Positions 18,184-60,203 are shown, numbered from the stretch's first letter. The stretch: DNA of 64,000 bases from an uncultured Acidobacteriota bacterium (GCA_963805975.1 CAWDVR010000005.1:64001-128000); one strand, 5' to 3'. Notes: generated from the letters alone by a model not told the origin. Numbers and translations are program-made.

Positions 18184-21100
18184 CTACGGCACCGTCAAGG
18201 TCCAGGCCGAGGTGTTGCCGGTCTCGAAGCCGTCGCTGAATACCGAGTCGAGGCAGGACTGCACGGCCACCTCGTCGATGTACCAGCCTTCGTGGTCGAC
18301 CGAGCTGTCGGTGGCGTGACGGAAGCGCAGGTTCACGGTCTGGCCGGCGAAGGCGGACAGGTCCGCGATCACCTTCGTCCAGTCCTGCGGGTCACCGCAC
18401 CAGACGGTCTGGCTGGCGAGCGGGTTCGAGAAGGTGGTGGAGACCGGCCCGTCGTACGGATCGACCAGGATCTCCGTCTGCAGGCGCGTGTAGTTCACGC
18501 CGTCGGTCGAGATGTCGATCACCGCGGCGTCGAAGCAGCCGGAGGGGGGCTGGTCCTCGATTGTCTGGTGCTGCCAGAAGACCAGGCTGATGGGCTGCCC
18601 GGCAGCCGGCGGCAGAGTGATCGCCGGGCTGTGCGCGCGCTGGTCGGAGACCTCGTCCGGGCTGCTCGCGTGGTACGAGACCGTGCCGGCGTGGGCCCGC
18701 GCGGTGGAGGTGGCCCAGGTGTCGCCCGTGCCGTGGTGCGTCCAGCCCGTGGCACCCGACTCGAAGCTCTCGAAGTAGTGGACGGTGGGCGTGAGACCGA
18801 TCTGGCAGTCGCCCGGCGCCGGGATGGTGGTGAAGGTGAAGGTCGCCGAGTTGGAGCTCGTGCCGCAGGCGTTGGTGGCCCGCACGCGCCAGAAGTAGAC
18901 CGTGTTGGTGTTGAGCGGCGACGCCAGGGTGGCGGAGGTGCCGGCAATGCCGCTCACCGTGGCCACGATGCTCGTGAAGCCGCTGTCGGTCGCCACCTCG
19001 AGCGTGTAGGTGTCGGCCTGCGTGGCGGCCGACCAGGTGAAGTTCGGCGAGGCCGCGACGTTCACGGCGCCGTTCGCCGGCGCAGTGAGGGTGGGAGTGC
19101 CGGGGGTCGCGGTGTAGAGCTCCAGCCCCACGTTCCGGCTCTGGGTGATAGCGCCCGAGACCCCGTCGATCTGCAACGTGTAGGTGCCGGGGGTGCCGGA
19201 GCCGGTGTTGCCGATGGTCAGCGTGCTGGTGCCGGGCGGCGTCACCGGGTTGGTCGAGAAGAGCGTCGTGGTGCCGGCCGGGTTGCCGCTCACCGACAGG
19301 GTCACGGGGTCCGTGAAGCCCAGGATCGAACCGATGGTCAGGTTGTAGACCGCGTTGGTGGGCGCGCAGATCTCGAGCGCCGTGGGGGCCACCTGCAACG
19401 TGAAGGTGGGCTCCTCGACGCAGTTGAAGCAGACGATGGCGAAGTCCTGATCCGTCGCGTCACCGCTTCCCGGCACGCCGTCGCCGGCGATGTTCGCCGC
19501 CGTGACCGTGATCTCGATCGCGCCCGAGGCCCCGGGCTGGACGAAGATCGCCTCGTAGTTGTTCAGGCTGTCCGACAGGCCGCCGCTCACGCTCCACTGG
19601 GAGGAGAAGACGTTGCCGTGGTACGAGGTGCCGGCCACCGTGGCGTCGAGGTTCAGGTTGTTGACCTGCGGGCTGGTGCCGATGGCGCCGGCCTGGTCGG
19701 TGTACACCAGGGCGATCCGCACCGGCTTGGTGTTGTCGGCCACCGCGCCGCTCCAGGTCCAGGTCTCGCCGGTGGCGCCGAAGACCTCGCTCTGGTCGAG
19801 TATGTACTTCGGCGTGTCGTCGAACATCAGGCCCATGTTGGGCATGCCGTAGCCCTGGACGTTCGAGGGCAGGGTGTCGTTGGCCGCGGTGCCCGTCAGA
19901 TAGGTGGGATGGGCAAGCAGGTAGGCCTTGGTCATCGCCGGGCTGGGAGCCGTGCCGAGCCCGTTGACCTGGTCGTTGTCGAGCCACCAGTGGACGAGCG
20001 AGGCGAGGCCGGCCACGGCCGGGGTCGAATGGCTGGTGCCGGAGGAGGCCGCGAACACGGTCTGGGAGCCCGGCCGGAACTGGTCGCAGACCCCGCTGCC
20101 GTTGTAGCTCGCGTTGGTGCTGGCGGTGCCTTGGATGTGGGTGCCGGGGGCGATCACTTCCGGCTTCTTGCGGTTGCCGGGGGCCGGGCCGCGGCTCGAG
20201 AAGCTGATCACGTCCATGACGTTGTTGGCGCCCGTGGGGCCGATGCCGCAGCCGTCGGTCCAGCTTCCGCTCTCGTCGCTCGGGCGGTTGTTCTCGGAGG
20301 CGCCGACGGTGATCATGTTCTTGCCGTTGCCCGGCGAGCCGATGGTGCCCGCCCCGGGGCCGGAGTTGCCGGCCGAGAAGACGATGGTCAACTGCTGGTT
20401 GCCGCCGGCCGTCAGGTCGGCGTCGCGGATGCCGACGTCGTAAGCCTGCGAGGAATCGTCATAGGTTCCGGCGCAGCCCGAGCAGCCCCAGGAGTTGGTG
20501 TTGATGCGGGCGCCGTTCAACCAGATCGAGCGGATCATCCCGGTGTCCGTGCCGCCGCAGGCGCTCTCGTCAAAGCCCGGTCCGAAGACGCGGGTGCCGG
20601 CGATGCGGCCGAACGGGTTGACGCCCATGCCGCGCTGATAGCCGTCGGGATCACGGAACGGGAAGCCGCTCCGGGTGTCGTAGCCGCCCACGATCGAGGT
20701 GTTGATGTGGCCGTGCCCGTCCGGGCCCGCGCCATTGGCGGCGGCGGTGCAGTTGGCGACGTAGGCGAGGCGCGTCGGGTTGCTCGTGCTGCCGCCTTCG
20801 TGGAAGGTCGGGTCCAGGGAGTTGACGAGGCCGTTGCCGATGCCGTCGTCCGTGATGTCGACGATCGGATAGTCCGCCTGCGCGGTGGAGAAGCCGAGGC
20901 CGGTCAGGAACGCGAGGTAGCCCGGGCTGGTCGCGCCGCCGCCGGTGATGGCGCCGGCCATGACCTGGTTCTGCATCTCGTCGTTGAGCTCACGCGGGAG
21001 GCGCTCGCCGATCCAGGAGATGGCGCCGAGCCGGGAGAGCGCCTGGAGGTCGCCGGCGCGGACCTCGGCCACTATGTTCTGGTACTCGAGGATCGCGGTC

Positions 21101-21816
21101 CAGGCGGAGAGGCGGCGCTGCGTCAGCTCGACGATCGCCGCCTCCGTGGTCTGCTGGCCCTGGTGACGGACCATCTGGATGGTCACCGGGATGACCTCGT
21201 CCGGGTTGAAGGTGCGGTCTTTGGTCTCGAAGCGGGCCCGGATCGTCGGGCTGAGCTTGAGGTACGGCGGCAAGGTGGCGCTCCACTGCAGCACGTCGCC
21301 GGCTGCGGCCAGATTGGCGAGCGCCGCCCGGCCCGCGTCGTCGGCCCACACCAGATAGCCCTGGTTGGCCACGTAGTGAATCGGCCGGGCGCCGGTGGCC
21401 CGCACCTCGTCCAGCCACTGGTCCTTGATCGGCCCCACGAACTGGATGATCTGGAGGGCGCCACCGTGCGCCGGCTCGGCCGCGAAGGCGCTCGGCACCG
21501 AGAGGCGATCACGGAGGGGCTCGAAGGTCCGTGCATCGAAGAGGATCCGCTCGTCCAGCACGGAGACCGCGCTCCGCGCCGCGGGCGGCAGCGCCCGCAA
21601 CGAGGTCTCGGGAACGCGGTAGAGCCCGAAGGCGCCGTAGTCGTGCAGCAGCGCGGCGCCCGCGGCCGTCTCCAGGGTCCGCGGCGGAGCGATCACTTTC
21701 ACCGTGCCTGCCGGGGCCGCGGTCGCTGGAGATCCGGCCGCCAGGCACAAGGTGGCGGCAACGAGAACCGATTGTTGCATTCTAAGAATGCATGAACTTC
21801 TGTTTCCGCTTGGCAT
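18184..21816 (-). CDS. secreted multidomain S8 (subtilase, KP-43-like) serine peptidase with Ig/Fn3-like and jelly-roll C-terminal domains
   Basis: Signal peptide and catalytic DITDDG / GHGH / SGTSHSTP, plus FSAGNSG and FSSRGP. Ends VFSDGFETGNTSAWTLTVP. Start uncertain (21840/21816/21780). Confidence 0.9.
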   Translation of the reverse strand: MPSGNRSSCILRMQQSVLVAATLCLAAGSPATAAPAGTVKVIAPPRTLETAAGAALLHDYGAFGLYRVPETSLRALPPAARSAVSVLDERILFDARTFEPLRDRLSVPSAFAAEPAHGGALQIIQFVGPIKDQWLDEVRATGARPIHYVANQGYLVWADDAGRAALANLAAAGDVLQWSATLPPYLKLSPTIRARFETKDRTFNPDEVIPVTIQMVRHQGQQTTEAAIVELTQRRLSAWTAILEYQNIVAEVRAGDLQALSRLGAISWIGERLPRELNDEMQNQVMAGAITGGGATSPGYLAFLTGLGFSTAQADYPIVDITDDGIGNGLVNSLDPTFHEGGSTSNPTRLAYVANCTAAANGAGPDGHGHINTSIVGGYDTRSGFPFRDPDGYQRGMGVNPFGRIAGTRVFGPGFDESACGGTDTGMIRSIWLNGARINTNSWGCSGCAGTYDDSSQAYDVGIRDADLTAGGNQQLTIVFSAGNSGPGAGTIGSPGNGKNMITVGASENNRPSDESGSWTDGCGIGPTGANNVMDVISFSSRGPAPGNRKKPEVIAPGTHIQGTASTNASYNGSGVCDQFRPGSQTVFAASSGTSHSTPAVAGLASLVHWWLDNDQVNGLGTAPSPAMTKAYLLAHPTYLTGTAANDTLPSNVQGYGMPNMGLMFDDTPKYILDQSEVFGATGETWTWSGAVADNTKPVRIALVYTDQAGAIGTSPQVNNLNLDATVAGTSYHGNVFSSQWSVSGGLSDSLNNYEAIFVQPGASGAIEITVTAANIAGDGVPGSGDATDQDFAIVCFNCVEEPTFTLQVAPTALEICAPTNAVYNLTIGSILGFTDPVTLSVSGNPAGTTTLFSTNPVTPPGTSTLTIGNTGSGTPGTYTLQIDGVSGAITQSRNVGLELYTATPGTPTLTAPANGAVNVAASPNFTWSAATQADTYTLEVATDSGFTSIVATVSGIAGTSATLASPLNTNTVYFWRVRATNACGTSSNSATFTFTTIPAPGDCQIGLTPTVHYFESFESGATGWTHHGTGDTWATSTARAHAGTVSYHASSPDEVSDQRAHSPAITLPPAAGQPISLVFWQHQTIEDQPPSGCFDAAVIDISTDGVNYTRLQTEILVDPYDGPVSTTFSNPLASQTVWCGDPQDWTKVIADLSAFAGQTVNLRFRHATDSSVDHEGWYIDEVAVQSCLDSVFSDGFETGNTSAWTLTVP

Positions 21817-21927
21817 GGTGCGTACCCCCATTCCCGTCACTGCGGGCGGCCATTTTTACAGATGCAGAAAAGGCTCCCCATCATAGTGGAGTGCTCAGCG
21901 GCCTGGAAGCCCCGGAGCCCGGTCCGC

Positions 21928-57383: not shown

Positions 57384-60203
57384 CTAATTGTTGACGACCG
57401 TGGTCCAGGCGGTGAGGTCGCCGGTCTCGAAGCCGTTCGCGAAGACCCCGGCGGCGCCCGGCACGATGGTCAGGTTGGCCGAGCCGGCGATGCCAGGGCA
57501 GCCGCCGCCCACCGAGGTCGCCGTCAGCGTGCGCAGGCCGTCCGTCGAGTAGACGACGGTGATCGAGGCGCCGGTGGCCGGCCCCACGATCAGCCCGTGG
57601 TTGACGTCGCCGATGTTCCAGAGATACGAGGTGGGCTGCGGCGTGCAGTTGCTGGCGCTGGCCGAGACCACGATCTCGAGGCCCACCTCGCCCTGGCCCG
57701 GTGTCGCCACGTCGATGTCCGGCAGGCCGCCGTCGCCGACGAAGATCAGCTCGTCGTGGGTGAAGACGTCCTCGACGCTCGCCCGGCGGACGCGGAGCTT
57801 CGGATGGTAGGTGCCTTCCTCCTCGTAGGTGTGGCTGCCCACCGGCGAGGTGTGACCGAGATCCTCGAAGGTGCCGTCGCCGTCCCAGTCGTAGTCCCAG
57901 AAGTCGGGCGAGCCGGAGGAGGAGTCGAGGAAGGTGATCACCTGGTCGACGTCGGCGAAGCAGCCGACGCCGGTGCAGAAGAGGCCGTCCTGCGAGAAGC
58001 CCGCCACCAGCGGCGTGGTGTTGGGGACCGACACCTCGGTCTCCTGGCTGGTGATCGCTCCCTGCTGGCAGTTGCGGATCGCAACCGTCACCGTGTAGTC
58101 GCCCTCGTCGTCGTAGGTGTGGGACGGCCGCGGCCCGTTGACCGGGTCGGAGGTCCACACCGGCGTGGTGCCGTCGCCGAAGTCCCAGCGCCACTCGGTG
58201 GCGCCCGCGCTCTGGATGCGGAACTGCACCAGGCCGCTGCCGAAGGGCGGCCCGTTGAGAGTCTCCGGCGCGTCGCCGGGCGAGGTGAAGTCGAGCGCCG
58301 GCAGGCCGGCGAGCACCAGCGACGGGCTGGTGGCGCTGTCCGAGCCGCTGGCGTTCGACACCGTGACCGTGGCGGTGTAGGTGCCGGCGGCGGCCGCGGC
58401 CGTGCTCCACACGAACGGGTTGACGTTGCCGCCGGAGGCGACCAGGGTGCCGCCCGAGGTGCGCACCTGCCAGGCATGGGTGATGGGGGCGAGCCCGGTC
58501 ACCCCGAGCGCCTGGAAGGAGACGTTCTGGCAGACCAGGGCAGGGTTGGGCGTTACCGAGACGGTGCCCACTTGCGCCGCCGGCTCGAGCACGGTGAGCT
58601 GCTGCGAGGCCGGGCTCGAAGGTCCCTGGGCATTGGTGGCGACGAGAGTGACCGTCTTCGTCCCCAGCGAGTTGAAGACCACGCCCGCGGGGTTCTTCAC
58701 CGTCGAGCTCGCCGGCGTGGCACCGGCGAAGGTCCAGGCCCACTGGGTGGGAACACCGGTCGACTGGTCCGTGAAGTTGATCGGCTCGCCGCGGTAGACC
58801 TGCGACGGGCTGTAGGTGAAAGCGGCGGCCGGCGGGCCGCCGGAGGTCAGCTCGTGGATATCGAAGATGGAGTAGGCGGCGCGGTAGAAGTACTTGCCCG
58901 CGAACTTCCCCACCCGTGCGTTGACGAAGTTGAAGCCGGTGGGGTTGCGGCGGTAGTACCAGCCCCAGTAGCCGGTCTGCGTGCCGCCGACCAAGCCGGT
59001 GGGCGGCGTGACGTCGAAGGCCGCGGACGGCGTCGAGACGTCGTACAGCCACTCGTTCTGAAGGCCGGTGCCGCAACGGTCGTCCGAGCCGAAGAAGAGG
59101 AAGTCGCGACCGCTGCCCACCGAGTCGGTGACGATGTACTCGCTGGCCGATCCGGGCAGGCTGCTGCGCGTCCACACCGGCGTCGGCGGGGTAGCGGGGC
59201 ACGACGCCCCCGCGATGCAGCTCACGTCGTAGATGCGGGCCTGGGTGGTATTGCCGGCCGTCACCACCCGGGTCGCCAGGTAGTAGTTGGAGCCCTTCCG
59301 CCACAGCGCGACACCGTGCACGAAGTCGCTGGGCAGCCAGGAGGCCATGAGCTGCGGGCTCGACGGATTCCCGACCTTCCAGATCTCGAGGCCGCGGCCG
59401 AAGAGGCCCGAGGAGGCCGCCACCCAATGCTGGCTGCCCGAGGCGTCGCCGGCGCCGTCCAGGTAGCTGAAGCCCGCGCGGGTGCCCAGGCGGCCGAGAT
59501 ACACACCGCAGCCCGTCTGGCCCGGAGTCTCTTCCGTGCAGATGCCCGTCAGGTTGGCCGCCGCCGTCATGTTGTAGGCGAGGAGCCCCGAGGTCTTGGT
59601 GGCCAGAAAGGCGTAGTCGGTGCTGCCGATCCGGGCTGCGTAGACCTGGGGTGCCTCTTTCCCCACGTCGGCGTAGCGGCCCGGGTTCATGTCGGTCTTG
59701 TTGGTGGTGTTGAAGATCGACAGGCCGCCGTCGCCGGCGAGAGCCACCGCCAGCACGTTGTCGTTGCCGTTGGGGGCGTCCAGGTCGCGCACCGGGTCCG
59801 AGACGTGCGGATCGCTCACCCAGTGGGGGAACTTGGTGCGCCCGTAGACCTTCACCCGCACCGGCTGCGCCGGGGTGGTGCGCGCGTCCCAGATCTGCAG
59901 GCCGTGGTTGATGCCGGCGAAGATCCAGCCGTTCTCGCTGTCGATCGACATCCAGTGCGGCTCGTTCTCGCCGGGAAAGTCGTCGAACTCGTCGAAGTCG
60001 GTGTTGTCTCGTTGGGCGGCGAGCTGGCCTATGTCGGTCGGCTTGAGCTCGCCCCACAGCGCCGACGGCACGCCGAAGGCCGGGGCGCGGCAGGTCAGGA
60101 ACTGGCAGGTCAGGTCCGTGCTGCACTGGGCGGCTGCCGGAGCGGTGGAATGAGCCGAAACGAGGAGCAGAATCCCGGCAGCCAGCGGAAGGCGCGAGCT
60201 CAT
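57384..60203 (-). CDS. large secreted protein: beta-propeller-like N-terminus plus multiple PKD/Ig domains
   Basis: Signal peptide and PKD signatures (FTDQSTG..WAWTF, WRWDFGDG, HTY...G.Y, WDYDWDGDG). Ends VFANGFETGDLTAWTTVVNN. Confidence 0.85.
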   Translation of the reverse strand: MSSRLPLAAGILLLVSAHSTAPAAAQCSTDLTCQFLTCRAPAFGVPSALWGELKPTDIGQLAAQRDNTDFDEFDDFPGENEPHWMSIDSENGWIFAGINHGLQIWDARTTPAQPVRVKVYGRTKFPHWVSDPHVSDPVRDLDAPNGNDNVLAVALAGDGGLSIFNTTNKTDMNPGRYADVGKEAPQVYAARIGSTDYAFLATKTSGLLAYNMTAAANLTGICTEETPGQTGCGVYLGRLGTRAGFSYLDGAGDASGSQHWVAASSGLFGRGLEIWKVGNPSSPQLMASWLPSDFVHGVALWRKGSNYYLATRVVTAGNTTQARIYDVSCIAGASCPATPPTPVWTRSSLPGSASEYIVTDSVGSGRDFLFFGSDDRCGTGLQNEWLYDVSTPSAAFDVTPPTGLVGGTQTGYWGWYYRRNPTGFNFVNARVGKFAGKYFYRAAYSIFDIHELTSGGPPAAAFTYSPSQVYRGEPINFTDQSTGVPTQWAWTFAGATPASSTVKNPAGVVFNSLGTKTVTLVATNAQGPSSPASQQLTVLEPAAQVGTVSVTPNPALVCQNVSFQALGVTGLAPITHAWQVRTSGGTLVASGGNVNPFVWSTAAAAAGTYTATVTVSNASGSDSATSPSLVLAGLPALDFTSPGDAPETLNGPPFGSGLVQFRIQSAGATEWRWDFGDGTTPVWTSDPVNGPRPSHTYDDEGDYTVTVAIRNCQQGAITSQETEVSVPNTTPLVAGFSQDGLFCTGVGCFADVDQVITFLDSSSGSPDFWDYDWDGDGTFEDLGHTSPVGSHTYEEEGTYHPKLRVRRASVEDVFTHDELIFVGDGGLPDIDVATPGQGEVGLEIVVSASASNCTPQPTSYLWNIGDVNHGLIVGPATGASITVVYSTDGLRTLTATSVGGGCPGIAGSANLTIVPGAAGVFANGFETGDLTAWTTVVNN

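Follow-up and report, generated by a model that had tools for sequence, protein, structure and literature searches.

Results

Two secreted proteins in the window share a C-terminal tail

The window is a 64,000-nucleotide stretch of DNA from an uncultured Acidobacteriota bacterium, whose genome (G000; 5.36 Mb, 70% GC, 96% complete) was searched as a whole. The minus strand of the window encodes an S8 peptidase and a PKD-repeat protein, both of which have signal-peptide-like N-termini and both of which end in a short tail, as a preliminary description of this DNA had reported. The features are:

18184..21840, minus strand: secreted S8 peptidase (P0003) with an InhA-like MAM domain (PF00082, PF20773), tailed cargo
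18184..18249, minus strand: putative C-terminal donor tail of the S8 peptidase, core V-F-S-D-G-F-E-T-G-N-T-S-A-W-T-L-T-V-P-stop (translation, regular expression, HMM)
18253..18786, minus strand: internal MAM-like jelly-roll domain of the S8 peptidase, with its own first strand
57384..60203, minus strand: secreted PKD-repeat protein (P0004), tailed cargo (translation, family scan)
57384..57449, minus strand: putative C-terminal donor tail of the PKD-repeat protein (translation, regular expression, HMM)

The peptidase terminates in DSVFSDGFETGNTSAWTLTVP and the PKD protein in GVFANGFETGDLTAWTTVVNN, each followed by the stop codon. The internal jelly roll of the peptidase starts with YFESFESGATGW, as claimed earlier, and because it has this first strand of its own, the MAM-like domain is complete and needs no tail in cis. 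A headless version of this MAM-like domain was not found in G000.

Paralogues and orthologues of the PKD protein carry other C-terminal modules where the window protein has the tail; in the paralogue at G000:C5:537976-542916, the slot is filled by a different module of ~470 aa. The surrounding locus (G000:C5:533559-544186, L004; also L005-L013) is conserved in several genomes of the order and encodes an ABC-2 permease, a repeat protein, a conserved secreted protein of ~440 aa, the giant PKD paralogue, an ABC ATPase and glycosyltransferases. The ~440-aa protein has no NCBIfam match, metatranscriptome contigs from relatives give its gene heavy cover, and it is a candidate S-layer protein with its own glycosylation locus. 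The ~470-aa module and this neighbour were considered as a tail receptor and rejected, since the locus also occurs in a tail-negative genome (G013).

The tail is a repeated, position-fixed C-terminal motif

The regular expression first suggested for the motif, with three residues between G and W, returned no matches; four residues are required. With the corrected expression F.[DN][GS]FE[ST]G.{3,4}W, a search of all six frames of G000 gave 38 matches, so that the motif is not confined to the two window proteins, and all 38 lie within 30 residues of the end of the open frame (chance probability ~1e-23, on all frames). A tail HMM found 46 matches of at least 17 bits, all ending 0-5 residues before the stop, and the next-best match scored 9.9 bits, leaving a clear gap. 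The G000 consensus is [ILV]-F-x-D-G-F-E-[ST]-G-[DN]-T-S-A-W-[TS]-x-[VT]-V-P-stop, in which F, F, E and W are invariant in 44/44 tails and the first Phe is exactly 18 residues upstream of the stop in 34/45. In 20 regions picked around matches in 13 other genomes, the tail was likewise C-terminal in 46 of 46 matches. Most of the named records with the tail among the 80 loci listed carry the label Thermoanaerobaculia, Holophagae or Acidobacteriota, which makes G000 a likely member of Thermoanaerobaculia.

The tail is acidic (median net charge -3), and none of 43 carriers has a predicted helix after the signal peptide, in agreement with the earlier statement that it is not a transmembrane helix followed by a basic cluster. 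A few of the G000 matches are short fragments resembling frameshifted genes. Four tails (L022, L025, L044, L046) bear an extension, ...W-T-x-C-x-G-x-C-P-P, that is probably closed by a disulfide. Some tails end already at the Trp (G016) or at the Glu, which implies either that a second strand is dispensable or that other readers exist.

Tailed proteins are mostly unrelated to one another

After removal of the tail, 44 carriers fall into 35 unrelated sequence clusters. Pfam matches on them comprise five S8 peptidases, an M14 peptidase, a trypsin-like peptidase, two nucleases, a di-haem peroxidase, GSDH, galactose-oxidase-like, five FG-GAP, CAP, DUF11, PKD and others, and the carriers are thus typical secreted enzymes and adhesins. 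The tail itself is covered by no Pfam family on the 44 carriers and by no NCBIfam family on the two window proteins. By a loose signal-peptide heuristic, 36 of 43 called carriers pass, compared with 1060 of 3407 genes, and three of the seven that fail have a visible signal peptide; the tail is therefore enriched on exported proteins.

The tail occupies a slot that homologues fill with other modules. Among the 120 best homologues of a tailed endonuclease, it terminates 18, PF13860 or PF18962 (FlgD/T9SS) is present on four, and seven have dockerin-like repeats (by regular expression) at the C-terminus, while the rest include proteins ending in further modules. Recurrent modules in this slot of cargo homologues (P0179-P0260; L012, L013) include ones ending in ...HLxxDVxGYxD and ...DTxAFxTC, for which no Pfam family was listed on those proteins. 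A short-motif search for a tail receptor found nothing, the neighbours listed for tailed genes include no recurrent partner, and only 3 of 43 tailed genes lie near glycan genes. We consider the tail highly likely to be a functional address tag.

The tail corresponds to the missing start of a headless jelly-roll protein

Matches to the motif in viral contigs are of two main kinds: 43 of 62 stand at the start of a long open frame, 17 are C-terminal tails and two are intermediate. Forty-one of the long viral domains were trimmed by 16 residues at the N-terminus, and G000 was searched with what remained. The top match was P0005, a protein of 213 aa encoded outside the window (G000:C6:244914-245555), with a match that is weak on its own (E 0.1 with the profile, 0.001 with two single queries). 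Its similarity to the domain begins directly behind the signal peptide, and in all of its relatives the signal peptide is likewise followed at once by the domain body. Headless copies start ~23 columns later than intact ones (alignment A3); intact copies, found in the order and elsewhere, have an F-x-D-G-F-E...W head ~23 columns upstream, and the head consensus of 111 intact domains equals the tail over the first 13 positions. At the level of sequence, these alignments establish that an intact ConA-like jelly-roll domain begins with the ~20 residues that form the tail, and that G000 encodes one signal-peptide protein, P0005, made of the same domain minus the tail-equivalent residues. The earlier remark that the tail resembles the first strand of a jelly roll therefore stands, but the parent is not the peptidase's own MAM-like domain; it is a related, unnamed ConA/polysaccharide-lyase-like jelly roll.

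This domain is named by neither Pfam nor NCBIfam, and a search of 1.84 billion representatives assigned 4263 clusters to its family at E 0.001. The best 150 of the 4263 include 11 short headless proteins; the other 139 are mostly of the intact type, and in 77 of these the last domain lies within 30 residues of the C-terminus. AlphaFold models of both forms are confident jelly rolls (pLDDT 93.5 headless, 91.4 intact), and the intact one gains two strands at the N-terminus. Despite low identity, the two models are similar in fold to PL20/PL7/PL14 lyases (TM to the PL20 lyase 2zzj 0.60 headless and 0.67 intact), and the head region is weakly similar to CBM22 and CBM16. A search for a close solved relative found none (best E 0.002).

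We inspected headless copies, hereafter catchers, in 49 genomes, usually one per genome. None of those inspected had a tail or head of its own, and none formed a tandem headless scaffold. V6, G14, V33, G167 and D183 do not vary across 30 headless sequences. The net charge of catchers is acidic (median -6), and three Arg positions are enriched relative to intact domains. P0005 itself is free-standing, with neither lipobox nor membrane helix. Two catchers (L254 in G365, L303 in G145) contain a Cys-containing insertion of ~75 residues behind the second strand. One genome (G400) with 138 tail matches and two headless copies also encodes large proteins that end in two or three tandem intact domains (L314, L319, L322, L324, L325). 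In metatranscriptome data (two small-share runs, contigs only), a 742-nt contig in X2 spans the catcher gene with 34 differences at a depth of 27, whereas most catcher-gene neighbours have little cover; this places the catcher gene in an RNA library, but it is at most a weak hint and gives no ranking of expression.

The tail is predicted to dock into the catcher

Modelling of the tail against candidate partners had been suggested, and P0005 provided one. The complex of the window S8 tail (32 residues, alignment A1) with mature P0005 (alignment A2) was predicted with a score of 0.82, against 0.00 for the best of three controls; the score mark for complexes is reached by 116 of 157 solved pairs and by 2 of 215 mismatched pairs. 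At least 94% of the contacts recur between runs, and the partner pLDDT is 77. In the predicted complex, tail residues 14-19 (VFSDGF) run along the last strand of the catcher (183-188), residues 27-31 (WTLTV) run along catcher residues 32-35, and tail F19 contacts V6, G18 and D183. Four of the five invariant catcher columns lie at or beside this interface: 6, 33 and 183 are listed contacts and 14 flanks the listed 15-19. Tail and catcher are two halves of one domain, and the pair may reach its score for this reason, which would speak for likeness rather than for binding in the cell. Taking this together with the other evidence, we hold it to be very likely that the tail binds the headless protein.

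The tail Glu and catcher Asp183 are both invariant, and they are adjacent in a model that lacks calcium. According to the available text of PMC2954218, BT2081, CBM11 and CBM16 hold a structural calcium through an N-terminal carbonyl and Glu, two loop carbonyls and a C-terminal Asp. By analogy, the tail Glu and catcher Asp183 may share a structural calcium, in which case pairing would restore a predicted site that the split divides between two chains.

Tail and catcher are distributed together across genomes

Phylogenetic profiling for co-occurring genes was another suggestion of the preliminary description, and here it was applied to the tail and the domain. The class sample contained 161 genomes, 25 positive and 136 negative for the motif by the tail profile. 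As a single query, P0005 matched 18 genomes, all within the 25. The domain profile matched 24, namely 23 of the 25 positives and one of the 136 negatives, and this one negative holds an intact domain. On inspection, a headless copy was present in 22 of the 25 positives, and none was found in the 136 negatives. In G353, both motif matches are the heads of intact domains; G254 has a single phage-type tail (G254:C65:3999-4067); and in G397 (13 tail matches, 93% complete) a headless copy was not found.

In the order sample of 151 genomes, the tail profile matched 97 and the body profile 95. Both were present in 93 genomes and neither in 52, leaving six discordant, four with only the tail and two with only the body; related genomes are not independent in these counts, and part of the co-occurrence arises by construction, because both profiles recognise an intact domain. 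Within families, the tail and body splits run in parallel (f8, 2/28 and 2/28; f4, 18/23 and 17/23; f10, 5/7 and 5/7; f17, 11/21 and 10/21). Two of the tail-only genomes have one match each (G017, G412), while G445 and G477, fragmented assemblies that are 91-93% complete, gave no domain-body match despite 31 and 25 tail matches. A further genome, G018, was entered as having both: it has 135 tail matches in 150 contigs (97% complete) and only a degenerate intact domain, and a search with three profiles found no headless copy. We regard it as a real exception to the pairing. The degenerate domain of G018 lies in a secreted protein of 460 aa (L516, G018:C1) that reads as having a cohesin-like start and a DUF11-like middle, and the product of the next gene has a dockerin-like motif.

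In the phylum sample, three genomes outside the class have the domain, intact in G174 and G022 and of ambiguous form in G133. The domain was not found in G401, which has one tail match, or in G402, whose listed matches are all on one contig. NCBI labels that place the tail outside the class were given no weight as evidence.

Many catchers are fused to SLH repeats or lie in glycan loci

C-terminal SLH repeats are present on 16 of the 49 inspected catchers (13 above the Pfam cut-off, one below it and two by sequence reading), a count that is not a frequency because the last 18 loci were partly chosen for long frames. One other fusion is to a dockerin and one to FG-GAP repeats. Genes of glycan type (glycosyltransferase, sulfotransferase, sulfatase-fold, flippase, ligase) lie within three genes of the catcher at 17 of 20 loci, with 115 of 118 neighbours scanned, as against 7.5% of genes in G000, the one genome used as background. 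None of these scanned neighbours is a chaperone, usher or sortase. G000 has no SLH domain, and there the P0005 gene heads a capsule-like locus. Simple electrostatic binding of the catcher to a sulfated glycan is not favoured, given the acidity of catchers. SLH fusions and gene context together suggest that tailed proteins are tethered to the envelope.

Phages, short tails and other phyla

The 17 tails among the 62 viral matches (L047-L108) are on phage-type proteins, as is the single tail of G254, and phages may use the catcher of their host. A shorter tail, ...IFxDGF[ED]-stop, caps secreted proteins in metagenomes (75 frames, 80 loci; L372-L451). Ten of its clusters were looked up: three bear the label Lysobacterales, Rhodanobacteraceae or Lysobacteraceae, and a fourth that of Vicinamibacteria. 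No catcher was found in the flanks of the 80 loci. In the Atlas, two Pseudomonadota clusters of 238 and 255 aa adjoin P0005 (0.96), which is a lead only; a search there with the tail alone gave uninformative scores below 0.9.

Discussion

A split jelly roll as the likely basis of the tag

We favour a reading in which the tag completes a separate headless catcher by donor-strand complementation, likely tethering the cargo to the envelope, and we put its probability at roughly 70%. Some 45 exported proteins with the tail would leave by Sec export before pairing. The first strand of the tail (V-F-x-D-G-F) would then pair with the last strand of the catcher and the second (W-T-L-T-V) with its YVQD strand, as modelled, and a calcium shared by the tail Glu and Asp183 could lock the pair by analogy with related folds; such pairing would require neither cleavage nor a covalent bond. 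In many genomes, fused SLH domains would keep the catcher at the envelope, and a free-standing one, as in G000, may be kept there because it binds, or is modified with, the surface glycan that neighbouring genes produce. The preliminary description had proposed a strand-complementing sorting or anchoring tail that docks onto a surface scaffold or an outer-membrane translocon. Copy number, position, cargo, headless partner and predicted complex all fit the strand-complementing tail, and surface display is a likely consequence, but the partner found is a soluble or SLH-fused protein and not an outer-membrane translocon. The fullest version of our reading, a jelly roll divided in evolution into a portable 20-residue tag, on as many as 140 secreted proteins in a genome, and one envelope-held catcher, calcium-locked and sortase-free, used in Thermoanaerobaculia, present in a short form in Lysobacterales and borrowed by phages for displaying proteins of their own on the host, has in our estimate somewhat better than even odds.

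The headless protein could instead bind the tail only in passing, as a chaperone or shuttle that is recycled in the periplasm after delivering cargo to an outer-membrane exit (a type II secretion system, for example), and would then be no lasting anchor. One headless gene for up to 140 cargo genes would suit a recycled carrier, as would the soluble G000 copy with no anchor domain; G000 has a T2SS-like cluster (G000:C5:325879-336657) whose genes read as GspF/E-like, secretin and pseudopilins, and SLH could fix a chaperone to the periplasmic wall. Yet in the 20 loci examined the catcher gene lies in a glycan context and not beside secretion genes, and a fold that is completed by a strand and a shared calcium usually comes apart slowly. 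Moreover, intact domains often sit at the extreme C-terminus of cargo-like proteins (the 77 of 139 above; also G145, G353 and G400), suggesting that the completed domain itself does the job. We regard a shuttle as unlikely.

Completion might alternatively assemble a carbohydrate-binding module in trans and so direct the enzymes to a polysaccharide or biofilm matrix outside the cell, not to the cell itself. The lyase-like fold, the weak N-terminal similarity to CBM22 and CBM16 and the intact copies in phage-type proteins are all compatible with such a module, but the SLH and dockerin fusions indicate the cell's own envelope, and the cargo nucleases, peptidases and peroxidases share no substrate, leaving this possibility improbable. 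It is also distinctly improbable that the main reader is another component, such as an outer-membrane protein or the S-layer, with the headless protein accessory or secondary: G018, with its 135 tails, and the short tails on Lysobacterales-labelled proteins, for which no catcher was found, would fit such a reader, but the tight co-distribution, the exact complementarity of the absent segment and the catcher-sized Pseudomonadota clusters near P0005 (again a lead only) argue against it. That the tail folds back in cis on the last domain, or is an inert remnant of truncated domains, can draw on its resemblance to the first strands of common jelly rolls, but is largely refuted, and highly improbable, given 35 unrelated protein types, four invariant residues, a fixed distance to the stop and a peptidase jelly roll that already owns a first strand.

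Relation to known systems

In cellulosome-type cohesin-dockerin and SLH systems, an envelope-anchored adaptor captures many secreted enzymes non-covalently, and the SLH fusions and the one dockerin fused to catchers recall this arrangement. Unlike a dockerin, which is folded, the tail consists of 20 residues that belong to the fold of the receptor itself, with one site per catcher; scans found no dockerin on 44 carriers and no cohesin on catchers. In T9SS, the signal is a folded domain, at least ~70 residues long, that PorU cleaves. This signal shares with the tail a C-terminal position and Sec-exported cargo of similar kinds, and FlgD/T9SS domains occupy the slot in homologues, but PF18962 had no match on the 44 carriers, and NCBIfam T9SS models had none on P0003, P0004 or their tails.

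LPXTG, PEP-CTERM, GlyGly-CTERM and MYXO-CTERM are described as tripartite C-terminal sorting signals in the available text of Haft (bioRxiv 10.1101/2023.06.07.544157). Of the sorting-signal attributes listed in that text, the tail shows 1-3 and 6-8 and lacks 4-5 (helix and basic cluster). Like tripartite signals, it is C-terminal, has many copies per genome with an invariant motif on unrelated signal-peptide cargo, is swapped for other signals in homologues and has a single-copy, co-distributed partner. That partner, however, is a soluble headless domain and not a membrane protease or transpeptidase, and cleavage is not implied.

Chaperone-usher pili, archaeal cannulae, which use chaperone-free donor-strand complementation with calcium (available text of bioRxiv 10.1101/2024.12.30.630787), and WxL/Elr pilus tip adhesins, which join a constant attachment module to a variable payload (available text of bioRxiv 10.64898/2026.10.17.759780), all have one chain's strand complete another's fold, as alignment and prediction suggest here. 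A pilus subunit, however, carries both groove and donor strand and polymerises, whereas the inspected catchers lack a strand to donate and thus form no polymer. Here the donor strand sits at the C-terminus of dozens of unlinked enzymes as a tag, the fold that it would complete is a jelly roll without a name, and the scanned neighbours of 20 catchers include no usher, chaperone or sortase. The gingipain ABM1/2 motifs are short motifs proposed to join secreted surface domains non-covalently (PMC5266723); in the available text they lie inside the polyproteins of a few paralogues, whereas the tail is terminal, genome-wide and has a dedicated free partner. Other ConA-like jelly rolls (PL20 2zzj, CBM16 2zew, CBM22 4xup, BT2081) are alike in fold and in the likely Glu/Asp calcium site, but they are single-chain and ~10-13% identical to the domain, which no family model covers. 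We conclude that the system resembles donor-strand complementation in its working and cohesin-dockerin or sorting signals in its service, but departs from each in defining features. A literature search, which most subscription papers and bioRxiv supplements lay outside, found no curated family or paper on the motif or the system.

Significance

If our reading is true, a signal that is read by completing the fold of a free partner represents a different principle of envelope display, and the survival of intact, SLH-fused and free headless forms keeps the origin of the split in view. Neither tail nor catcher is large or hard to express, so that the claim is testable without culturing the organism, and the two could become a calcium-switchable tag/catcher reagent. 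For the organism, a split jelly roll would explain how an abundant, barely cultured Acidobacteriota class retains dozens of peptidases, nucleases and glycan-active enzymes, and loss of the single catcher gene should then release all of the tailed enzymes.
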